IMG/VR virus record: IMGVR_UViG_2713896785_000025
Source of the DNA: a virus
Lineage: Duplodnaviria > Heunggongvirae > Uroviricota > Caudoviricetes
DNA length: 12,187 bases
Reading direction: 5' to 3' (one strand)
Shown here one piece after another: positions 1-12,187 of this stretch (the stretch's first letter is position 1; each line of letters opens with the position of its first letter). Made by a program: the position numbers and the translations under genes. The notes under the pieces were generated by a model. The model saw only the letters and a program-made list of their open reading frames with translations, was not told the origin of the DNA and made no database searches.

Positions 1-1461
1 ATGAAAAAATTACTGCGTCTTTTTTTCCCGCTCTCACTGCGGGTACGTTTTCTGTTGGCAACGGCTGCGGTAGTACTGGTGCTTTCGCTTGCCTACGGAA
101 TGGTCGCGCTGATCGGTTATAGCGTCAGTTTCGATAAAACTACGTTTCGGCTGTTACGTGGCGAGAGCAATCTGTTCTATACCCTTGCGAAGTGGGAAAA
201 CAATAAGTTGCATGTCGAGTTACCCGAAAATATCGACAAGCAAAGCCCTACCATGACGCTAATTTATGATGAGAACGGGCAGCTTTTATGGGCGCAACGT
301 GACGTGCCCTGGCTGATGAAGATGATCCAGCCTGACTGGCTGAAATCGAATGGTTTTCATGAAATTGAAGCGGATGTTAACGATACCAGCCTCTTGCTGA
401 GTGGAGATCATTCGATACAGCAACAGTTGCAGGAAGTGCGGGAAGATGATGACGACGCGGAGATGACCCACTCGGTGGCAGTAAACGTCTACCCGGCAAC
501 ATCGCGGATGCCAAAATTAACCATTGTGGTGGTGGATACCATTCCGGTGGAGCTAAAAAGTTCCTATATGGTCTGGAGCTGGTTTATCTATGTGCTCTCA
601 GCCAATCTGCTGTTAGTGATCCCGCTGCTGTGGGTCGCCGCCTGGTGGAGTTTACGCCCCATCGAAGCCCTGGCAAAAGAAGTCCGCGAACTGGAAGAAC
701 ATAACCGCGAATTGCTCAATCCAGCCACAACGCGAGAACTGACCAGTCTGGTACGAAACCTGAACCGATTGTTAAAAAGTGAACGCGAACGTTACGACAA
801 ATACCGTACGACGCTCACCGACCTGACCCATAGTCTGAAAACGCCACTGGCGGTGCTGCAAAGTACGCTGCGTTCTCTGCGTAGTGAAAAGATGAGCGTC
901 AGTGATGCTGAGCCGGTAATGCTGGAGCAAATCAGCCGCATTTCACAGCAAATTGGCTACTACCTGCATCGTGCCAGTATGCGCGGCGGGACATTGCTCA
1001 GCCGCGAGCTGCATCCGGTCGCCCCACTGCTGGACAATCTCACCTCAGCGCTGAACAAAGTGTATCAACGCAAAGGGGTCAATATCTCTCTCGATATTTC
1101 GCCAGAGATCAGCTTTGTCGGTGAGCAGAACGATTTTGTCGAGGTGATGGGCAACGTGCTGGATAATGCCTGTAAATATTGCCTCGAGTTTGTCGAAATT
1201 TCTGCAAGGCAAACCGACGAGCATCTCTATATTGTGGTCGAGGATGATGGCCCCGGTATTCCATTAAGCAAGCGAGAGGTCATTTTCGACCGTGGTCAAC
1301 GGGTTGATACTTTACGCCCTGGGCAAGGTGTAGGGCTGGCGGTAGCCCGCGAAATCACCGAGCAATATGAGGGTAAAATCGTCGCCGGAGAGAGCATGCT
1401 GGGCGGTGCGCGGATGGAGGTGATTTTTGGTCGCCAGCATTCTGCGCCGAAAGATGAATAA
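1..1461 (+). CDS. phoQ: Sensor histidine kinase PhoQ (complete, 486 aa)
   Basis: Full-length ORF; sequence matches E. coli PhoQ as recalled (N-terminal TM segment, periplasmic acidic patch EDDDDAE, H-box [11 protein letters not shown], ATPase motifs DDGPGIP and GQGVGL). Stop TAA at 1459-1461. Confidence 0.96.
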
Positions 1462-2599: not shown

Positions 2600-3142
2600 T
2601 TACTCGCCTTTCTTCTGTAGCAACTTTTCCGGTACGTTTCCGGTTGTTTCTTTCAAGTAATCAGCCAGTATCTGTGGGAGGTTGTCGGCAACTCTGGCAC
2701 TGGCATTACAGGCTTTAACCACTTCCCTTTTAAGCCTGTCCAGCATGGCGGGGGGAATCTGTGGGAAGCTCCTTTGCATAGTAAGCGGGAGGATGTCCAT
2801 GATTGATGAAATCTGACTCGCCAGCTTTGAAAGCGCGTACAGGCAAAACTCAGTATCAATCACGTCACCGCGATCGCGATCGTTTTTAAGTTCCTGCGCC
2901 TCTGCCTGTGCTGTCAGTAATCTGATCCTGACTCGTAAAAGTTCATCATCGTCAATCTCGCCTTTGTCGTTTATAAGCTGGCTAATTGCATTGTTAACCC
3001 TATTTTCTATCACGCTGGCAACATCATAAAACGCCTCACGGCCTTTACGCTCAACGGGAGTTACTCCCCACTTGTCGAACGCTGTCGCACTTACACGGCA
3101 GCTTTTCGCCATGTTTTTTTTGTTCATCAGATGAGATTTCAT
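2600..3142 (-). CDS. Terminase small subunit, lambda Nu1-like (180 aa)
   Basis: Blocks shared with lambda Nu1 as recalled: NKK near N-terminus, LT(A/R)AQA(E/D)AQELKN.RD, (E/A)FC..(A/V)LS, ILPL(T/S)(M/V)QR.FP, LKR(E/D)(V/I)(V/I)KA. SD-like GGTG before ATG 3140-3142. Confidence 0.85.
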   Translation of the reverse strand: MKSHLMNKKNMAKSCRVSATAFDKWGVTPVERKGREAFYDVASVIENRVNNAISQLINDKGEIDDDELLRVRIRLLTAQAEAQELKNDRDRGDVIDTEFCLYALSKLASQISSIMDILPLTMQRSFPQIPPAMLDRLKREVVKACNASARVADNLPQILADYLKETTGNVPEKLLQKKGE

Positions 3143-3250
3143 TAATACACCAACTTAATTACTGCTTCAGGTTGGTGTATTGCTTGCATCTTTCCCTTTT
3201 CATTCATAAAGATAGATCAAACAACAAAACCACCACCACCCCCCTGAAAA

Positions 3251-3319
3251 GGCTCATAAATAGCGAAAATCCGCGAGGTCTCCGCCCCGTAACAGGTCCA
3301 TATGCCGGAAAGGACCCGC
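3251..3319 (-). other. Second lambda-type cos (cos2) in minus orientation: cosQ-like flank, cosN-like GGGCGGAGACCT (rc of 3276-3287, one mismatch), proximal cosB-like sequence, about 135 bp upstream of terS start
   Basis: Minus strand reads GCGGGTCCTTTCCGGCATATGGACCTGTTACG GGGCGGAGACCT CGCGGATTTTCGCTATTTATGA, closely matching the lambda right-end/left-end junction as recalled. Confidence 0.7.
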
Positions 3320-3341
3320 AAAAAAGCCGGATTTCTCCGGC
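3320..3341 (-). terminator. Intrinsic terminator (copy 1 of a thrice-repeated motif)
   Basis: Minus-strand RNA: hairpin GCCGGAGAAAUCCGGC followed by U6; 7 nt downstream of stop of gene 3348-3761. Confidence 0.6.
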
Positions 3342-3347
3342 CTTGTC

Positions 3348-3761
3348 TCAGATGGTTTTCAGTATGCGATCGATGTCGCCGTCATCGCCCGGGTTTCTGC
3401 CATCGTATGCCATGCCAGCTGATACGGCTTGTGGGCTGTGCATGTCCATAAAGTTTTCAAAGGCTGCGGTAAGCTCTGGTGCAACCTTCGGGCGTTCCTG
3501 CTCTATGGTCATGTTCAGGATGTTTTTAGCCGTATCAACATCAATACAAGGCACGTTTGCCATTGCACGTAACAGCGGCTGATAGTCGTCAGATTCATGA
3601 AGCGCCATAATCGCATCAGCGCGCGGCTTGTCCTTCTCTTCCAGGCTGTTAAGTTGATATACGGCCTCGTAGGTTGATAAACCTCTGTCAGCCATTGCCC
3701 GCGCTTCGGCTTTAAATTTACTCGCCAGCGGTAGCGTCATGATACTTTCATTCGTTGCCAT
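3348..3761 (-). CDS. Hypothetical protein (137 aa), between decoration gene and terS
   Basis: ORF with SD-like AGGGGGA upstream of ATG; 12-nt gap after the upstream gene stop; no recognisable motif. Confidence 0.65.
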   Translation of the reverse strand: MATNESIMTLPLASKFKAEARAMADRGLSTYEAVYQLNSLEEKDKPRADAIMALHESDDYQPLLRAMANVPCIDVDTAKNILNMTIEQERPKVAPELTAAFENFMDMHSPQAVSAGMAYDGRNPGDDGDIDRILKTI

Positions 3762-3773
3762 CGTTCCCCCTGC

Positions 3774-4109
3774 TTATCGCGCCAGCGGCTGAACGGATAC
3801 GCCAGAACCCGCAAAGGCGGCGCATTTTTTCGCGTCGGTGTCGGCGCTCTCAGGCCAGTTAACGGCGGCAATATTGAATATCCCCGTCTTGTAGCACTGT
3901 GCTGATTTCTGCGTCGACGTGTCCACGGGGTACGAGGTCAGATAAACAGCCTTGCCAGATTCCTGACCATCCCACGGCTTAAACTCGCCATTTTCCGCCA
4001 GCATCAGCGGGGTAAATTCCTGAATAACGCCAGCATCAGCAGCAAAATGTACCAGCGTCGTGGATACCTGCTGACTACCTGCAAATAACTCAATGTATGG
4101 AGTGTCCAT
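3774..4109 (-). CDS. Head decoration protein, lambda gpD-like (111 aa)
   Basis: Motifs shared with lambda D as recalled: TPLML, WDG, YK(T/S)G(I/T)F, WPE, KK..AFAG; same length class; SD GGGGGGA in 12-nt spacer after MCP stop. Confidence 0.85.
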   Translation of the reverse strand: MDTPYIELFAGSQQVSTTLVHFAADAGVIQEFTPLMLAENGEFKPWDGQESGKAVYLTSYPVDTSTQKSAQCYKTGIFNIAAVNWPESADTDAKKCAAFAGSGVSVQPLAR

Positions 4110-4121
4110 AGAATCCCCCCG

Positions 4122-5177
4122 TTAACCAATTTTGACGGTAACAAATTTGCGAATATCTGCCGGTACCGGCTGCGGTGCGCTGTGCGTCTGCACGTACTCA
4201 ATCGCCGGATCGCCGTCCTCAATCCAGTTTTTCGGGTAAAACATGTTTTGCGTTGCGCCCGTTCTGACCGCTTCCTGATCCATAATCGCACCATAGGCCA
4301 CCAGCCCTTTATTGTTGGTGTTACCCAGGACCAGCAAATCAGGCTCAAGGAAATATTTTTCGGTGCCGTCGCTGTCAGTGTATTTGCCGGAATAGACGAC
4401 AAGGGCAATATCGCCCAGATAGCCTTTAAAGCTCACCACTTCACCCAGGTTTTTACAGGCCAGTTCTGCGGCGGATTCTGAACCACGGGAAAGGTCGTAC
4501 AGTTCGCGGAATTTTTTAAAGCTGCGTAACGTGCGCCATACTTCAGCGCCCATAATCATGACGTTTGCGGGGCAATTGCCCTGATCAGCATAAAGCTCGA
4601 TGTCATAGATTGGATCGTGTGTTTCTTTATCCAGCTCAGACCATTTTTTACCGTCAGCCTGTTCTATGATATTGCTTTCCGGGATCTTCCAGTCGATTTC
4701 ATAGCGTTCTATGCCTTCGCCCTCAATGAGGTTTTTTCCGGTCGTTACCGCATTCACCGCCAGCCATTCCACGCGTGCCTTAATGGCGTTTATCTGGCGG
4801 CGCATGTTGCCAGTAATCAGGCGCATACGGCGATAGGTAGGATCGTTAAGCTGTGCCGGATCTTCTCCAGCCATGCGCATGATGGTTTTTGTTGGATCGA
4901 TTTCGTGTTTGGGTTTCATGTAGCCTGGTTTAATCGTGCTGGTTTCGTACCCTTTATCGCGCTGGACCTGACTACCCACCATAGGCGAACAGAACGCTGA
5001 CATCGTAACCTCTTCAATGTCCAGGGTGTCCAGCATGATGTTCTGGGTGTTGAAGGTCGCCACGTTCGGGAAAAACAGCGTGGTAAACAGCGGACTGAAT
5101 TTAAATTCTGCAATATCCCCGCGATTCAGGTACGCGAAAAGCTGGTTAGTGTTAAGTGCCGTTGCTTTGCCTGCCAT
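4122..5177 (-). CDS. Major capsid protein, lambda gpE-like (351 aa)
   Basis: Motifs shared with lambda E as recalled: (K/E)FKF.PLF..LFF, PGY(V/M)KPKHE, EDP..L.DP.YRR.R, YSG.Y, YPKNW...GDPA, SAP. Strong SD GGAGGTGA; start overlaps upstream stop (TAATG). Confidence 0.9.
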   Translation of the reverse strand: MAGKATALNTNQLFAYLNRGDIAEFKFSPLFTTLFFPNVATFNTQNIMLDTLDIEEVTMSAFCSPMVGSQVQRDKGYETSTIKPGYMKPKHEIDPTKTIMRMAGEDPAQLNDPTYRRMRLITGNMRRQINAIKARVEWLAVNAVTTGKNLIEGEGIERYEIDWKIPESNIIEQADGKKWSELDKETHDPIYDIELYADQGNCPANVMIMGAEVWRTLRSFKKFRELYDLSRGSESAAELACKNLGEVVSFKGYLGDIALVVYSGKYTDSDGTEKYFLEPDLLVLGNTNNKGLVAYGAIMDQEAVRTGATQNMFYPKNWIEDGDPAIEYVQTHSAPQPVPADIRKFVTVKIG

Positions 5178-5383
5178 TATTCACCTCCATGCGTCTGATT
5201 CATGCCCAGCGCCGCGCGTAAATAGGCGCGGACCTGCCAGCCTGTTGACGGCTCAACCATCGCCAGCGGATCAAGTCCTGCCGCAATGCCTGCTTTTACG
5301 TTCTGCTGGTGGCGTTCCTTGAGCGCCTTCACGATGTCGGGGCTTATGTACACCGAAACACCGCCTTTTTTCTCTTCAGCCAT
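5177..5383 (-). CDS. Hypothetical protein (68 aa), first gene of capsid operon
   Basis: ORF with SD AGGA 7-9 nt upstream of ATG; stop overlaps MCP start codon. Confidence 0.6.
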   Translation of the reverse strand: MAEEKKGGVSVYISPDIVKALKERHQQNVKAGIAAGLDPLAMVEPSTGWQVRAYLRAALGMNQTHGGE

Positions 5384-5439
5384 AGTAAGAAATTCCTCTT
5401 CGACTTAAAAAATCATAACTGGATGTTTATCCAGTCCTG

Positions 5440-5467
5440 ATTATAATCAGAATTGCATTTTATGCAA
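5440..5467 (-). promoter_or_regulatory. Candidate sigma70 promoter for capsid operon (-10 TATAAT, -35 TTGCAT, 16-nt spacer) overlapping palindrome TTGCATTTTATGCAA
   Basis: Minus-strand hexamers read from rc of 5440-5445 and 5462-5467; inverted repeats at 5453-5467 and 5418-5435 (ACTGGAT-GTTT-ATCCAGT). Confidence 0.4.
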
Positions 5468-5548
5468 TGATATTGAGTTATGTTGCAAATTATGAAATGA
5501 TTATCCCGATCACGAACGCCAGTGCATCCAAAAACCTCATATGCAAAA

Positions 5549-5586
5549 GCCCGATAAGAACCCTCTGACCTTATCGGGCTTTTTTT
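5549..5586 (+). terminator. Hairpin plus T7 (10-bp stem GCCCGATAAG/CTTATCGGGC); strong on + strand, weaker on minus
   Basis: Perfect 10-bp inverted repeat with 11-nt loop followed by TTTTTTT on + strand; A-run on other side gives U4 on minus strand. Confidence 0.5.
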
Positions 5587-5592
5587 GGGCGC

Positions 5593-5614
5593 AAAAAAGC
5601 CGGATTGCTCCGGC
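5593..5614 (-). terminator. Intrinsic terminator (copy 2 of repeated motif)
   Basis: Minus-strand RNA: hairpin GCCGGAGCAAUCCGGC followed by U6; about 20 nt downstream of gene 5635-5859. Confidence 0.6.
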
Positions 5615-5634
5615 TATGTGTGCTGTGTGCTGGC

Positions 5635-5859
5635 TCAGTCTCTGATCTCTTTCAGAAATTCTATCAATGCATCTATCTGTTCAGGATTTACCGCCAGCAT
5701 TTCACCGGATAGAGCACATCTCACAAAACCATGCTGATCCTTTTCAATCAGTGCGCCCGTCTCCAGGAATGCGCGGTAATCATTGATGCTCATCGTCTCC
5801 ATGTTGTCAGCATGGTATTTATCACGCTGTTTTAATATCTCATCAAATTTCATCGGCAT
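5635..5859 (-). CDS. Hypothetical protein (74 aa), terminator-insulated cassette
   Basis: ORF with SD AGAGGA 9 nt upstream of ATG; no recognisable motif. Confidence 0.6.
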   Translation of the reverse strand: MPMKFDEILKQRDKYHADNMETMSINDYRAFLETGALIEKDQHGFVRCALSGEMLAVNPEQIDALIEFLKEIRD

Positions 5860-5955
5860 TGTTTTTTTCCTCTGTTGTGTCTGTTTGTTTCAGATAGTAA
5901 CTATGCCTGACCGTGACGAAAACCCGGTAATGCGCCATACCGTTTCAACTGGTGC

Positions 5956-5978
5956 AAAAAAAGCCGGATTTCTCCGGC
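5956..5978 (-). terminator. Intrinsic terminator (copy 3 of repeated motif)
   Basis: Minus-strand RNA: hairpin GCCGGAGAAAUCCGGC followed by U7; 8 nt downstream of stop of gene 5986-6258. Confidence 0.6.
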
Positions 5979-5985
5979 TGTTTGA

Positions 5986-6258
5986 TTAGCTGTCCTGGTA
6001 ATTGCGCCATATTTCATCACCAGCACCATCTATACCCATTTCGGCATAAGTGCGATCGACTGCCTTTTTCAGGTCTCCGAAATTATCCGGCGGCTCCGGT
6101 GCCCTCTGTGCCTTCCTTGAACATTCCAGCCGTCGCATCGTGATGTGATGCCGTTCCTTGTCTGTCTCCACCAGCTGCATGACTTCACCCCATCGCGCCG
6201 CCGCCCTCCGGTAAAAGCCTTTCGCCTCCAGTTCCTCCGCTATGCGGTCATGTACCAT
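5986..6258 (-). CDS. PerC-family transcriptional regulator-like protein (about 90 aa; start refined from the 130-aa track ORF)
   Basis: N-terminal motif D.IAEELEAKGFYRRAAARW typical of the PerC/Pch family as recalled; internal ATG at 6256-6258 has SD GAGGGGG 5 nt upstream, and the SSB stop codon lies within that SD. Confidence 0.6.
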   Translation of the reverse strand: MVHDRIAEELEAKGFYRRAAARWGEVMQLVETDKERHHITMRRLECSRKAQRAPEPPDNFGDLKKAVDRTYAEMGIDGAGDEIWRNYQDS

Positions 6259-6268
6259 CGTCACCCCC

Positions 6269-6679
6269 TCAGAACGAAATATCATCACCGTAAGGGTCAT
6301 CGCCTCCCGCTGGTGGCTGATTACCCTGTGTGCCTGTGGTTTTGCGTCTGTTCCCGCCTGGACGTGCCGCGCGGGCACTGATTACGCTGTCTGCGATAAC
6401 CTGCCAGCCCTGCCGCGTTTCTCCGTTCTGTCCGGTCCACTGGCTTACCTGCATCGTGCCGGATACGCTGGCAACATCGCCTTTTTGATGTTTAGCCAGG
6501 AAGTCGGCCTGTTTGCCAAATGCGATGACCGATAACCATAACGTCGCCTGTCCGTCCTGTGCCTGGCTGCATGGCAAAGATACCGCCATACGCGCCAGCG
6601 TCATCGGTGTGCCCTTGCTGGTCTGTTTTACCTGCGGGTCGTCCACCAGCCGCCCGTAAGCGGCTATCTGTGCCGTCAT
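6269..6679 (-). CDS. Single-stranded DNA-binding protein homolog (136 aa)
   Basis: OB-fold blocks align with E. coli SSB as recalled (GRL..DP, FGK.A, W..Q.G..R); Gly/Gln-rich linker; acidic C-terminal tail GDDISF (host tail is DDDIPF). SD GGAGAGGTGG; ATGA overlap with upstream gene. Confidence 0.8.
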   Translation of the reverse strand: MTAQIAAYGRLVDDPQVKQTSKGTPMTLARMAVSLPCSQAQDGQATLWLSVIAFGKQADFLAKHQKGDVASVSGTMQVSQWTGQNGETRQGWQVIADSVISARAARPGGNRRKTTGTQGNQPPAGGDDPYGDDISF

Positions 6680-6927
6680 AATTCCACCTCTCCGGTTTTA
6701 ACGTTGATGGTTGTTACCTGTTCCGCTTCGGCAATCTCCCGTTCTGTCAGCGTGGCAAAGTTTGCCGCCGCCGTGGTCATGAATGCGCTTATCAGGTCGG
6801 GATGTTCCTTCGCGTATCCTTCCCGCGTGTGGCGGTCTATCGTTCTGATTGCCACCTTTAAGGTGTGCTCAGTCATGTCTAACGCTTTATATTTTGGCTC
6901 TGTTCTGTCTCTGCGTTTTTGGGTCAT
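6676..6927 (-). CDS. Hypothetical protein (83 aa from ATG; track ORF uses GTG at 6957)
   Basis: ATG at 6925-6927 (rc) with GAGAGG 9 nt upstream; GTG start would place iterons inside the coding sequence. Confidence 0.5.
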   Translation of the reverse strand: MTQKRRDRTEPKYKALDMTEHTLKVAIRTIDRHTREGYAKEHPDLISAFMTTAAANFATLTEREIAEAEQVTTINVKTGEVEL

Positions 6928-6939
6928 TTCTCGCAACCT

Positions 6940-7130
6940 CTCACTTTTTCGCCTCACTTTTTCAAGCGTCTCACTTCGTCGCAGTTGGGATTTTCGGTTT
7001 TTCTATGTGTGTGTTTCATAAGTATTTTTTTACCCCTCACTTTTGAGGATGTATACAGGTCGAAAAGTGAGGGAGAGCGGGCTAATTTTGGCCCTCTTTC
7101 TATCCCCCTCGCTTTTGCTCCTCACTTTTA
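6940..7130. repeat. Iteron array / candidate origin of replication (CTCACTTTT repeats, one inverted) with AT-rich tract
   Basis: CTCAC(T)4 at 6940-6949, 6953-6962, 7036-7045, 7121-7130; variants at 6970-6978 and 7108-7117; inverted copy AAAAGTGAG at 7063-7071; AT-rich stretch 7001-7034; immediately downstream of replicase gene. Confidence 0.6.
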
Positions 7131-8528
7131 TAGCGGCGCTACATCATCCCCATCGATACGAATAACCCCATCTTTTTCCAGCTTGTACAGCCAGCGCCGG
7201 AAGTTTTTCATTTCATACCCCAGCTTTTTCATGTCATCACGTAACAGCGGGATCGTGCACTTGTCGCCGTTCTGTGTGCGTGAACGGATGCACCCCCATA
7301 GCGCGGTATGGTTTTCCGTCTTGTTCCCTGCCTCCTCGATGCGCTCCAGTTCAACAGGAGGGCGCGGATCATCCACCACCACCAGCGACGTGATTAATTC
7401 ACCGTCAGCGTCGGTAAAAAGCTCCACCACGCGTAAGTCATATGCGGCTTCTTTGAGTTCCTCCGCGTCCTTCATTTTGGTGCATGAGATAACCAGCGCT
7501 TCGCTTCCTGCGTCCTCCCTGCGTATCCGGTATTCAGCATCCAGCGAAGCACGAAATGCACTGGAACCGCGCGCGCCTTTCGTCTCATCCTTGCCGGAAT
7601 GGTGAACCACCAGCACCGTGGCCCCTGTGCGTCGTTTCAGTTCGTCACAACCACGGATAAACGCCCCCATATCACGGGAATCATTTTCATCATTCCCACC
7701 AAAGCAACGCGCCAGCGTATCCAGAATAATCATGCGTACAGGTTTACCCGTTTCCCGCTCCACCTGACGGGCAGCGATAACCATTTCATCAACATCAAGC
7801 GGGGCAGCCGGAAAGATGGGGCGGTTTACCAGATACAGATTTTTCACCTGCTCATCGTGCACAACCTCCCAGGCTTTTACACGACGCGGAACACCTATAC
7901 CGCCTTCACCAACCACATAGAGAACCGCACCATGTGCAACCCTGCGGCCTCCCCACTGGCGACCAGTGGCAACATGGCACGCCCACGATCCGGCAAGGAA
8001 TGATTTATAGGACCCGCTAGCCCCGTATATGCTGCATAGCGATACCGCCGGAATAATCCCCTTAACCACGTAATCCAGTTGCGTGTCGTATCCGGTAGAT
8101 CCAACGCTCATCGGTAGCGTGGTTTTTCGCTGGTGGTTTTTTTCTTCCGCCGGCTCTTTCCCGCGCACCCGTTCCAGGTATTCGCGCCAGTTCTCCCGCA
8201 TATGGCTGTGCATCCCTTCGGGGTAATAATTCGCATCAGTTACACCCGCCGCCGCCAGCTTGTGCGCAATGGCATTAATATTTGATGGCCTGATGTGGCC
8301 TGCCTTGTACAGCCGGACACAATAGCGCCCCTCGTCGATGATTCTCAGGTCTGCCAGTTCATCCAGTTGATCATCAGCCAGCACAACGGGAGGCACATTA
8401 TCGCCAGCCAGTCGCCCGTCCTGTTCCTGCCACTGTTTCGCATGTGCCCAGGCATCACTACCCGCAAAAATAATGACTTCGGTCATCTTGTCGTAAGGCT
8501 GTTTTTTTAAGTTCGGTGCGCTTTTCAT
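7128..8528 (-). CDS. Replication protein: RecA-like AAA_25 ATPase/helicase-type replicase with N-terminal possible Toprim/primase-like domain (466 aa)
   Basis: Walker A GASGSYKSFLA...HVATG, Walker B-like MIILDTLARCF, HHSGKDETKG motif; SD AGGGG; start overlaps upstream stop (ATGA). Confidence 0.85.
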   Translation of the reverse strand: MKSAPNLKKQPYDKMTEVIIFAGSDAWAHAKQWQEQDGRLAGDNVPPVVLADDQLDELADLRIIDEGRYCVRLYKAGHIRPSNINAIAHKLAAAGVTDANYYPEGMHSHMRENWREYLERVRGKEPAEEKNHQRKTTLPMSVGSTGYDTQLDYVVKGIIPAVSLCSIYGASGSYKSFLAGSWACHVATGRQWGGRRVAHGAVLYVVGEGGIGVPRRVKAWEVVHDEQVKNLYLVNRPIFPAAPLDVDEMVIAARQVERETGKPVRMIILDTLARCFGGNDENDSRDMGAFIRGCDELKRRTGATVLVVHHSGKDETKGARGSSAFRASLDAEYRIRREDAGSEALVISCTKMKDAEELKEAAYDLRVVELFTDADGELITSLVVVDDPRPPVELERIEEAGNKTENHTALWGCIRSRTQNGDKCTIPLLRDDMKKLGYEMKNFRRWLYKLEKDGVIRIDGDDVAPL

Positions 8529-8871
8529 TTCTTGCCCCTGAATCCGTTAATCATGGTTTTCAGCTTCTGGATGTTTGCCCGTGCCCTGGCGTTGCTGGTG
8601 GGCACGTTATGCGGCGCGGTCTGTACCAGAGAAAAATCACGCCGGAACTGATAAACAGGCATCACGCAATCATATTCGTAACCTTCACGNNNNNNNNNNN
8701 NNNNNNNNNNNNNNNNNNNNNNNNNNNNNNNNNNNNNNNNNNTGATTTTTGTTTGTCGCGTTCATTGTCGCCAAGTGTTTCAAGCCATATGCGCAATATT
8801 TCCAGCATGTTTTCACTGTGAGAAAGTGCAAGAAATGCGCGGTCTATTGTTTGGTGGTAAATATCACGCAT
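8525..8871 (-). CDS. Hypothetical protein interrupted by assembly gap (N-terminal 43 codons 8743-8871; C-terminal 54 codons 8528-8689 plus stop 8525-8527)
   Basis: Both fragments are open right up to the gap edges; ATG 8869-8871 with SD GAGGA; C-terminal frame ends with TGA overlapping replicase ATG. The stated gap length (53) is not a multiple of 3, so continuity is unproven. Confidence 0.45.
8690..8742. other. Assembly gap (53 N)
   Basis: Run of n characters in the sequence. Confidence 1.
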
Positions 8872-10403: not shown

Positions 10404-10592
10404 TTAATGAACTGCCTTGCAGCTATCCTTCCAGGCCAGAACCTCGGATAAAGACCAGCCAACGGAACGACCGCCAAGTTTACGACGTGATGGGAATTGT
10501 CCGGCCTTTTCCAGGCGGTAGCGACACGTACGGCTAAGGCCGGTTAGTTTTTCGCATTCTTTTTCACGTATAAACCGATCAGTGCTTAACAC
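10404..10592 (-). CDS. AlpA-family transcriptional regulator (about 62 aa from GTG; track gives 89 aa from TTG at 10673)
   Basis: HTH block LTGLSRTCRYRLEKAGQFP..RKLGGRSVGWSLSEV.AW typical of AlpA/Phage_AlpA as recalled; GTG at 10590-10592 (rc) preceded by SD AGGGGGG with 5-nt spacer; no internal ATG. Confidence 0.8.
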   Translation of the reverse strand: MLSTDRFIREKECEKLTGLSRTCRYRLEKAGQFPSRRKLGGRSVGWSLSEVLAWKDSCKAVH

Positions 10593-10957: not shown

Positions 10958-12187
10958 TTATTTTCTTCTGGCTGCTGGTAGTGCGGTTACGTTTTCATGT
11001 GTTCCCGCCAGTATCCCTAACCGCTCCATCCACATATCCAGCGCATTGCGTTTAGCATCCAGATAACGGGAATGATTATAAACTCGCTGCATTCCTGGCA
11101 TCTGGTGGCCTGTAAGCTGCTCCACGACGTGAGGATCCACGCCTAAATCGCTCAGCATCGTTGTAAAGGTGCGCCGGATGTCATGTAGTGACCAGTGAGG
11201 GTGATTTAGCCTCCTGTGCGCTAATCTGCCGTACTGCGACACGCTTGTTTCCTGTTTCACTTCCCCCAGCAATAAGCCCGTGTGCCTGTTCTGCTCCACC
11301 AGCTGCGTGACGAACGGCAGTATTGCTTCCGGTATGGGCCGGAATATTGCCACCTTCGTTTTGCTGTGTTCTTTCGGCACGGTCCAGAGCATTTCGGTAA
11401 AATCCCACTCGCTGATCTCCGATAACCTCAGTTCTACCGTCCGGCATCCGAACACAATCAGGAGGCGGATTAACGCGATGTAGTAGGGGGAGAATATTTT
11501 TTTGTCCAGTGCCTGCAATAATTCGCCCAGTTCTTTGGTGCTTAAGACACGCTCGCTTATATCCGGTTTTTTCCCAACGTCCGCCACACTCATATCATCA
11601 AGAACGTTGCTGATTGCATAGCGCCGCCTCCGGCAGAACTTAAGCGCCTGTTTGCACGTCTGTAGCAAGAATCCGGCAGTAACAGGCGTTCGCTTTGCCA
11701 CCTGGTCAAAACAGGCCAGCCAGTGCCGTAGCTCGCATTTATCCAGCGGCATAGCACCAATGTGCTGTATTACGTGATTATTAAGGCGCTTTTTCAGGGC
11801 GGCATAATCCACGCGGTTTTCCTTTGCGTACGACTCAAGCCAGTAGGTGAGCGCATCGCCAACCGTTACCGGCTTTAACGCTTCCTGTACGGTGTAATTA
11901 AGCTCATGACGTGGATTTTTCCCCTCTGCCAGCCATGCGCGACACTGGGCGGCTTTTTCCCTGGCTGATTTCAGGCTCAGATCAGGATAATTTCCCAGCT
12001 TAATGCGTTCCGGTGGTGCCCCCCTTCCCGTTCCGGCCCTGTAAGTGAAATACCAGGTTAAAAGGCCACTGGTTGAATGCCTGACGCTCAGGTTTCCACC
12101 GTCATTAAGAAAGGCTGTTTTTTGGGCGGGTGTGCCGTTGATTTTCCTCAGCTGTGTATCGCTCAGTTTGTTAAGTGCTCTGCTCAT
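10958..12187 (-). CDS. Tyrosine recombinase / integrase, P4-like family (409 aa; start codon at the window edge, so the 5' end could be truncated)
   Basis: N-terminal arm-binding-type region; catalytic-domain motifs GCRTVELRL, HDIRRTFTT, LTGHQ...VYNHSRY (R, H-x-x-R, Y). Confidence 0.92.
   Translation of the reverse strand: MSRALNKLSDTQLRKINGTPAQKTAFLNDGGNLSVRHSTSGLLTWYFTYRAGTGRGAPPERIKLGNYPDLSLKSAREKAAQCRAWLAEGKNPRHELNYTVQEALKPVTVGDALTYWLESYAKENRVDYAALKKRLNNHVIQHIGAMPLDKCELRHWLACFDQVAKRTPVTAGFLLQTCKQALKFCRRRRYAISNVLDDMSVADVGKKPDISERVLSTKELGELLQALDKKIFSPYYIALIRLLIVFGCRTVELRLSEISEWDFTEMLWTVPKEHSKTKVAIFRPIPEAILPFVTQLVEQNRHTGLLLGEVKQETSVSQYGRLAHRRLNHPHWSLHDIRRTFTTMLSDLGVDPHVVEQLTGHQMPGMQRVYNHSRYLDAKRNALDMWMERLGILAGTHENVTALPAARRK

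Follow-up and report, generated by a model that had tools for sequence, protein, structure and literature searches.

The window (the whole stretch of 12,187 nucleotides analysed here, IMG/VR record IMGVR_UViG_2713896785_000025) begins within phoQ, whose 3' part occupies 1-1461 (+ strand), and continues with about 10.7 kb transcribed on the - strand, with a tyrosine integrase gene (10958-12187) at the window end. An AlpA-like HTH gene (10404-10592) and the gene of a RepA helicase (7128-8528) belong to this segment. Next to repA lies an iteron region (6940..7129; repeat families D1/D2 and I2/I20), in which the iteron CCTCACTTTT is present in four direct copies (6940, 6952, 7035, 7120) and one inverted copy (7063). 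The origin of PICIs comes after pri-rep (PMC6092414) and, judged by its repeats, this region is probably the satellite replication origin. It is followed by a unit of three genes on the - strand. The first encodes 83 aa (6676..6927; RefSeq WP_000192401.1), aligns with its homologue ECs1586 of strain Sakai and is called orf1586 below; its stop overlaps the start of the satellite ssb (6269..6679; Pfam SSB, E 1.7e-16; TIGR00621, 57.3 bits at a cutoff of 53.95). Immediately downstream of ssb, and in the same operon, is a perC/pchE-type gene encoding a group 3 PerC homologue of 90 aa (5986..6258).

In strain FWSEC0001 the element sits between phoQ and roxA (ycfD). The RefSeq order there is integrase, AlpA-like HTH regulator, Icd-like genes, DUF4222 protein, RepA-family helicase, a small hypothetical protein, ssb, the PerC regulator WP_000233304.1, a hypothetical protein, a 68-aa gene, major capsid protein, head decoration protein, another hypothetical protein and the small terminase subunit. 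The first-pass annotation had placed the perC gene on a satellite, and indeed the element has the features of a Gram-negative PICI: int, an alpA-type regulator, a replication protein followed by the iteron region, a size in the range of ~10-15 kb, a specific attachment site (phoQ/roxA) and no lysis or tail genes. Its capsid protein is 96% identical to the capsid of EcCICFT073 (c1499), and we refer to the element as an EcCICFT073-type PICI. EHEC chromosomes, those of O26:H11 among them, gave megablast matches over the whole stretch with 100% identity; at least 80% of it is present in 361 of the 5426 complete genomes of E. coli.

The coding sequence of perC extends on the - strand from ATG 6258-6256 to TAA 5988-5986. 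A PerC-like gene had been proposed for exactly this place, and a profile search against the PerC family bears this out: the deduced protein matches Pfam PF06069 (PerC) with 146.1 bits (E 3.9e-43; cutoff 22.6 bits) over its full length, residues 1-89 aligning with profile positions 1-89 of 90. As a sequence match this is far past chance. The gene is already known; it is annotated in RefSeq at exactly 5986-6258 with an identical product (WP_000233304.1, 'PerC family transcriptional regulator'), and the PerC family has been described as a feature of PICIs in several papers. The product is a small, all-helical protein whose 90 residues are within the size range of the family (~80-105 aa). In a 42-sequence alignment of distant representatives, the invariant or nearly invariant columns correspond to D4, A7, L10, E11, G14, R17, R18, A19, R22, W23, C46, M74 and G75, all of which are present here; the protein thus carries the motif AE.LE..G.YRRAA.RW, Cys46 and the MG near residue 75. 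Nei-Gojobori counts between the alleles of the window and Sakai gave a dN/dS of 0.23 for perC, 0.05 for ssb (ECs1587 in Sakai) and 0.32 for orf1586; with its value of 0.23, perC is under purifying selection.

Other reading frames in the region were rejected. A 130-aa frame with a GTG start at 6378 (5986-6378) would extend perC at its 5' end, but the profile and all homologues begin at MVHD, encoded from ATG 6258. Two frames on the + strand (5952-6143 and 6145-6381) overlap two conserved genes of the - strand. A 42-aa 'hypothetical protein' in RefSeq (window 5901-6029) overlaps the 3' end of perC and the terminator and is probably spurious.

The perC start is tightly packed against ssb. The junction reads, on the - strand, 5'-TTC TGA GGGGG TGACG ATG-3' (6259..6271). 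The ssb stop TGA (6271-6269) overlaps the Shine-Dalgarno sequence GAGGGGG (6270-6264), whose first two bases (GA) are supplied by the stop codon, and a spacer of 5 nt separates it from the ATG of perC. This arrangement can be read directly from the DNA and is conserved in three other satellites, EcCICFT073, Sakai Sp7 and the cf-PICI of strain EC8. That the ssb stop lies inside the Shine-Dalgarno sequence of perC, as the first-pass annotation had stated, is therefore plain; the translational coupling it had deduced is what the geometry of the junction would suggest.

Six nucleotides after the perC stop codon begins the stem of an intrinsic terminator on the - strand (5955..5979; terminator scan and fold). 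The stem-loop AGCCGGAGAAATCCGGCT (5979-5962) has 7 pairs, 5 of them G-C, and a loop of 4, and is directly followed by TTTTTTT (5961-5955). The 51-nt stretch folds with -17.7 kcal/mol (z -3.5 against shuffles), and the terminator is identical in Sakai Sp7. Terminator-like sites are frequent in the region, with 9 found by the scan compared with 2.3 expected. A second copy of the hairpin, AGCCGGAGCAATCCGGCT with a T run, is located further downstream (5592..5615, - strand, stem 5615-5598; terminator scan, fold and repeat family D5), and a third strong hairpin (5583-5545, -24 kcal/mol) also lies between perC and the capsid operon. Between perC and the downstream terminator there is a 74-aa gene (5635..5859, - strand), the homologue of ECs1589, which had no family match above threshold (best DUF7189, 16.5 bits at a cutoff of 27) and is absent from EcCICFT073 and EC8. 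In these two elements perC is followed directly by a near-identical counterpart of the 5615-5598 hairpin; in the window and in Sakai the 74-aa gene plus a second hairpin copy are inserted between perC and the hairpin of that type. A terminator after perC, a hairpin with seven T residues, is thus present as proposed, but the word 'dedicated' has to be qualified, as perC of EcCICFT073 and EC8 ends at the 5615-5598-type hairpin.

In O157, RNA-seq and 5' RACE revealed a polycistronic RNA that covers ECs1586, ECs1587 (ssb) and pchE, with its 5' end 10 nt upstream of ECs1586 (PMC7369912). On the upstream side, homology of the window to Sakai does not reach beyond the ribosome-binding site of the ECs1586 homologue; the mapped O157 promoter sequence is absent here and its place is taken by the CCTCACTTTT iterons. 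A promoter scan found no sigma-70-like site on the - strand at 6900-7200. Since the O157 promoter is not conserved and no such site was found, the orf1586-ssb-perC unit may be transcribed by read-through from repA, in the operon under AlpA control.

The closest named relative is PchE (ECs1588) of O157 Sakai, with 81 of 90 residues identical (90%) and no gaps; the nine substitutions are Q28L, H38Q, I39V, R52K, A53P, K64R, A79V, G80S and Q88P. Both satellites occupy the site phoQ/roxA, have integrases that are 99% identical and share the orf1586-ssb-pchE operon, followed by the same terminator and an ECs1589-like gene. The block ECs1586-ssb-pchE-ECs1589 is 94% identical to the window at the DNA level, but both flanks are unrelated: the sequence upstream of the operon differs, the replication module has a RepA-type helicase in the window and a 710-aa primase in Sakai, and the capsid module consists of lambda E/D plus a Nu1-like gene in the window and of a full HK97 capsid/portal/terminase set in Sakai. 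In O157:H7 this site, which is also that of EcCICFT073, holds O-island 51, also known as CP-933C or Sp7 (PMC3378721), which later work identified as EcCIEDL933, a capsid-forming PICI (bioRxiv 10.1101/2022.09.08.507074). From the identity to ECs1588 and the synteny of orf1586-ssb-pchE on a satellite at phoQ/roxA, we regard it as virtually certain that the window gene is a PchE-type, group 3 member of the PerC family.

EcCICFT073, the prototype Gram-negative PICI, also shares the chromosomal site, the ssb-perC junction, the decoration protein and the late promoter region with the window, in addition to the capsid; c1499 and c1500 have been described as homologues of capsid and head decoration proteins (Fillol-Salom et al., PMC6092414). 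Its PerC-like protein is 83% identical to that of the window over 78 aligned residues but is only 82 aa long, with a shorter and divergent C terminus. Furthermore, EcCICFT073 does not have the ECs1589-like insertion after perC and has a primase as replication protein in place of the RepA helicase. The PICI EcCIMP1 likewise carries a PerC-family gene, EcCIMP1_025, whose product is, by its authors' figure, ~40% identical to the PerC-like proteins of EcCIEDL933 and EcCICFT073 (PMC11773190). EPEC PerC and the group 1 Pch proteins of EHEC (PchA/B/C) belong to the same Pfam family, but their genes are found in a prophage late region or on the EAF plasmid, in contrast to the satellite replication operon of the window. 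A 104-aa PerC-family protein adjoining lambdoid lysis genes (holin, Rz1), whose length and surroundings suggest group 1, is 42% identical to the window protein. With this identity and its setting in a satellite replication operon, the window protein was not assigned to the group 1 Pch/EPEC PerC type.

How widespread are such genes? Of the 5426 complete E. coli genomes searched by blastn, 963 contain the gene, in nearly all cases on the chromosome; with tblastn, 138 plasmids and only 7 of 50,697 phage records gave matches. A word-indexed protein search returned close E. coli relatives only; the size of the family became visible when 1.84 billion cluster representatives were searched exhaustively with a profile, which gave 244 relatives at E <= 0.001. 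By the measure of these searches the PerC family is small.

Gene order was compared at 13 loci: those of the Escherichia strains (the window, Sakai, O157 strain 2149, EC8, VTB96815v, CFIAFB20180511 and CFT073) and one genome each of E. albertii, E. ruysiae, Chimaeribacter, Pantoea, Erwinia and Lonsdalea. The cross-genus part of this sample is small, the 6 species-level loci coming from the locus search with a narrower alignment. At all 13 loci perC is located just downstream of, and on the same strand as, a satellite primase or helicase gene. The two are separated by ssb in the Escherichia loci, some of which have a ProQ/FinO gene there as well; in the four loci outside Escherichia perC follows about 190 bp after the primase gene. 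Wherever the junction was read, perC starts directly at, or overlapping with, the stop codon of the gene before it, as in E. ruysiae (ATGA). The region 3' of perC is highly variable and is occupied by a capsid module of the lambda E/D type, a complete cf-PICI module of the HK97 type, a Panacea-domain pair, three large unknown ORFs or other large ORFs. Judged from these gene orders, the link to ssb is local, and the general rule is that perC ends the replication module and borders the variable region. Plant-associated genera and commensal E. coli without LEE are among the carriers.

The AlphaFold2 model of the window protein, built on a 16-sequence alignment, has five helices and a mean pLDDT of 82. 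The blocks covering residues 1-50 reach 90-95, with three confident helices at residues 5-50, and the C-terminal 40 residues reach 59-77. A Foldseek search of the PDB gave nothing significant for this model, with no match below E 2, and a profile search of solved structures gave chance matches only (best PACSIN F-BAR, E 0.55); no experimentally determined structure of a PerC or ANR protein came up in the searches. In the viral set of Foldseek the best match was a PerC homologue of a Klebsiella phage; a phage ANR protein superimposed with 0.7 A over 43 columns, a match that was not significant. Structural matches of the model are generic for three-helix units. No DNA-binding motif or fold was found in the predicted all-helical model.

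A resemblance to the ANR (AraC negative regulator) family of small anti-activators (Aar, Rnr) also emerged from profile comparison. NCBIfam NF033650 (ANR) matches residues 7-52 at profile positions 9-54 of 54 with 20.4 bits (E 3.3e-4), which is below the cutoff of 32 bits; sub-threshold matches of the same kind were seen for 9 of the 16 members of group 3 and, among ten short relatives (56-69 aa) retrieved with the PerC profile, for 8. The three N-terminal helices of PerC align with the ANR profile, and part of the ANR signature has counterparts in them: the invariant residues A7, E11, A19 and W23 have the same 4-8-4 spacing as A10, E14, A22 and W26 of ANR. As to the further signature positions A29, W43 and R47, the counterparts in PerC are V26, a position that is not conserved and one that is ambiguous, respectively. 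ANR proteins, too, are all-helical and have no DNA-binding motif. They differ from the window protein in that the latter has ~40 extra C-terminal residues with two more helices and a conserved MG motif. Mutation of the A-E-A-W signature positions abolished the activity of Aar (PMC4983702), and Aar binds H-NS (PMC5570504); the mode of action ascribed to ANR proteins, binding of AraC-type activators and of H-NS, has been demonstrated for Aar only (PMC4983702, PMC5570504). An ANR-like function has been suggested before for EcCIMP1_025, whose weaker BLASTp and conserved-domain matches included the ANR family (PMC11773190).

Our reading, to which we give a probability of roughly 60%, is that the window gene is a PchE allele, placed as the last gene of the orf1586-ssb-perC unit 3' of the origin of an EcCICFT073-type PICI, and that its product is a regulator acting by protein contact. 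The protein would consist of an ANR-like three-helix interaction module and a PerC-specific two-helix tail, and would bind other regulators (for instance nucleoprotein complexes of H-NS/StpA/Hha or activators of the AraC type), thereby altering their output. Classical promoter-specific activation by PerC would then be unlikely. For the mechanistic part taken by itself, a protein-protein, nucleoid-modulating mode of action drawn from the predicted model and by analogy to relatives, we see about even odds.

One analogy comes from the group 1 proteins. Pch of this group activates LEE1 only in the presence of the H-NS/StpA/Hha complex and displaces H-NS; PchA relieves the silencing by this complex and has no homology to DNA-binding proteins (PMC4764244). 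In the PchE papers, StpA is described as H-NS-like, H-NS as a repressor of csgD and LEE as silenced by H-NS (PMC6265319, PMC7369912). The genes that respond to PchE (stpA, flhDC, csgD, eae) thus include ones tied to H-NS, which fits the proposed mechanism without testing it. Pch proteins have also been described as DNA-binding in ChIP and in vitro (PMC4764244), and with this in mind we allow for direct DNA contact by PerC as well.

What is published on function concerns orthologues; of the 90 residues of the window allele, 9 are not those of Sakai PchE. Only the group 1 proteins PchA/B/C are required for expression of ler and espA; PchE of group 3 is not (PMC6265319). LEE1 fusions were unaffected by the PerC-like genes of EcCIEDL933 and EcCICFT073, according to the passage in PMC11773190 that cites Porter 2005, and EcCIMP1_025 strongly silences LEE1 in C. 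rodentium (PMC11773190). Overexpression of PchE lowered csgD more than 7-fold and repressed curli and biofilm formation independently of ler (PMC6265319); it raised fliC 20-fold, flhDC more than 2-fold and motility, and it lowered stpA, eae, lpfA1 and adhesion to HEp-2 cells (PMC6265319, PMC7369912). These phenotypes are mainly from plasmid overexpression, and the effects of a pchE deletion were ~2-fold or less (PMC6265319, PMC7369912).

Virulence crosstalk was one of the two roles that the first-pass annotation had offered for the gene. It agrees with the literature on the 90% identical PchE as far as csgD and curli, adhesion, flhDC/fliC and motility are concerned, but the model of a LEE activator that it implied does not fit, as group 3 PchE is dispensable for ler and LEE1 fusions did not respond in the account cited above. 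By analogy, crosstalk of the PchE type would have the sign opposite to that of the classical, LEE-activating PerC, which matches the literature. This has a bearing on EHEC: the phoQ/roxA island of the O26:H11 type has genes for RgdR and for a PchE allele, the two published PICI-borne regulators, and their presence on one island is relevant to strain differences in adhesion, biofilm formation and motility.

Is PerC then nothing but host cargo, a regulator of adhesion, motility and virulence that has no role in the life cycle of the satellite? This is the strongest competitor of the protein-contact reading, although we hold it to be rather unlikely. It would account for the altered curli, biofilm, flagella and adhesion upon overexpression of PchE (PMC6265319, PMC7369912), and papers on PICIs do class perC as a virulence or accessory gene (PMC6092414, PMC11773190, PMC13612085). 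The three conserved genes reported to be essential for induction and transfer are int, alpA and pri (PMC10111431), and pchE is expressed in the uninduced state (PMC6265319). However, perC is unlike typical cargo in its fixed position as the last gene of the replication module; its start directly adjoins the gene before it in that module, and the variable region begins only just 3' of it. Furthermore, perC is found in plant-associated genera as well as in commensal E. coli devoid of LEE. The gene has been treated as virulence cargo and yet is fixed in place in the satellite replication operon in genera without LEE. In the PICI literature we found no published perC deletion that had been assayed for replication or transfer of the element.

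It is tempting to speculate that the opposite holds and that PerC-type proteins are core life-cycle genes of enterobacterial PICI and cf-PICI satellites rather than virulence cargo. PerC, made together with the replication proteins, would then remodel H-NS-type complexes on the AT-rich DNA of the satellite, perhaps also of the helper, and this remodelling would license expression of the late operon or replication. In pathogens, LEE, curli and flagella would be affected as a side effect of the same nucleoid modulation. The fixed 3' position in the replication module at 13 loci from five genera is consistent with such a role, and so are the tight junction with the preceding gene and the AT-rich late promoter that is insulated by terminators. 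We consider this extension unlikely. If it were true that satellites need perC, it would link xenogeneic silencing to satellite induction; we found no reports in the literature that test this need.

The second role that the first-pass annotation had put forward, an activator of the late operon, fares worse still. PerC would be made at the end of the early or replication operon after induction and would switch on, or relieve from silencing, the promoter in front of the 68-aa and capsid genes. Its position speaks for this, as perC is conserved in place across satellites and lies immediately upstream of the late operon, from which it is separated by the hairpins at 5979-5962, 5615-5598 and 5583-5545; with terminator-like hairpins in between, the late operon needs its own initiation. 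The late promoter region is AT-rich (33-37% GC over 5350-5574), and AT-rich DNA is the kind silenced by H-NS. Moreover, the group 1 Pch proteins are H-NS anti-silencers (PMC4764244). On the other hand, PerC proteins that are 90-95% identical precede two unrelated capsid-promoter regions, the window and CFT073 having the lambda E/D type and Sakai and EC8 the HK97 cf-PICI type, and a comparison of the two types found nothing in common besides the terminator hairpin. The gene is also present in satellites that have no capsid genes downstream (loci L005, L006 and L008-L013) and on plasmids. Transfer of EcCICFT073 was unaffected by deletion of c1499 (capsid) or c1500 (decoration) (PMC6092414); these genes being dispensable there, a dedicated regulator would be of little selective value. 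There is no DNA-binding fold in the model of PerC. Finally, expression of pchE in the uninduced O157 lysogen is low and steady and drops upon SOS induction (PMC6265319); as EDL933, however, lacks a helper phage for the EcCIEDL933 island (bioRxiv 10.1101/2022.09.08.507074), the induced state was not observed in O157. Altogether, activation or anti-silencing of the capsid operon appears quite improbable as the function of PerC, and a sequence-specific mechanism of late-operon activation is unlikely.

Interference with the helper phage, for which one may argue that Gram-positive PICIs usually carry interference genes after the origin (PMC6739421), is very improbable: when the post-origin genes of EcCICFT073, whose PerC-like protein is 83% identical to that of the window, were cloned singly, only c1503 (rpp) reduced plaque formation by lambda (PMC6739421), and PerC is therefore not the interference factor, a role that is largely refuted as far as lambda is concerned.

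Besides perC, the PchE-type PerC-family gene, the island carries a DUF4222 gene (window 8525-8824, minus strand) whose product shares 81% identity with RgdR (ECs1581), the OI-51-encoded type III secretion activator, and retains the RGD motif. Since 53 window bases inside this gene are masked as N (8690-8742), both the comparison and the motif were taken from the identical O26 locus, L001. With an RgdR-like gene present alongside perC, the island thus has the two "virulence regulators" that have been published as PICI-borne.

The stretch 6940-7129, which separates repA from the orf-ssb-perC unit, contains CTCACTTTT five times, four copies being direct and one inverted; three of the four direct copies read CCTCACTTTT. 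This iteron region is the probable replication origin. In E. coli O157 Sakai the mapped pchE promoter sequence is found at this place, whereas in the window the iterons replace it.

On the other side of perC, a 74-aa ECs1589-like gene (5635-5859, minus strand) has a terminator hairpin on each side, AGCCGGAGAAATCCGGCT (5979-5962) towards perC and AGCCGGAGCAATCCGGCT (5615-5598) on the far side, and the two hairpins are almost the same. The prototype island EcCICFT073 and the cf-PICI of strain EC8 have only one such hairpin and lack the gene. The segment (5592-5984) looks like a small cassette that was inserted at the hairpin by recombination. Its dS against Sakai is 0.05, far below the 0.17-0.24 of the neighbouring genes, which suggests, from sequence divergence, a recent exchange. 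A profile search assigned the 74-aa product to no family. RefSeq also annotates a 42-aa "hypothetical protein" (WP_001301569.1; 5901-6029, minus strand), but its reading frame runs over the 3' end of perC and on through the perC terminator, and the call is probably spurious.

The head module further downstream (2600-5383, minus strand) is partial and of lambda type only. It begins with a 68-aa gene (ATG at 5383) and comprises, all on the minus strand, homologues of the major capsid protein E (4122-5177) and the decoration protein D (3774-4109), a 137-aa unknown and a Nu1-like small terminase (2600-3142). By profile searches and the RefSeq annotation, the satellite has no portal, protease or large terminase gene. 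The capsid protein shares 96% identity with that of EcCICFT073 (c1499), which showed no phenotype (PMC6092414). At the position of the Nu1-like gene, CFT073 has a 144-aa gene that is not similar to it and may be c1503 (rpp).

Several features are stacked in the leader of this capsid operon (5384-5470, minus strand). A perfect -10 element, TATAAT (5445-5440), lies within the palindrome TGATTATAATCA, with TTGCAT (5467-5462) 16 nt upstream. Directly downstream of the -10 is a hairpin, GACTGGATAAACATCCAGTT followed by ATGATTTTTT (5436-5417), and then come the ribosome-binding site and start codon of the 68-aa gene. A 65-nt stretch of the leader folds with -15.7 kcal/mol (z = -3.0), and the leader sequence is near-identical in EcCICFT073. 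The hairpin could be a promoter-proximal terminator, which would place the late operon under antitermination control, or a third insulating terminator; alternatively, the palindromes could be a pair of operators. A transcript beginning about 7 nt past the -10 would lack part of the stem.

In four of the satellites compared (L005, L006, L008 and L009) a gene for a ProQ/FinO-family RNA chaperone lies between ssb and perC, its stop codon overlapping or abutting the perC start. One of these, L006 from E. coli CFIAFB20180511, has two PerC-family genes (3878-4180 and 7943-8230). One copy follows ssb and ProQ/FinO, as is usual; the other is more divergent (45% identical to the window protein) and is located close to a gene with a Panacea domain, within the variable region.
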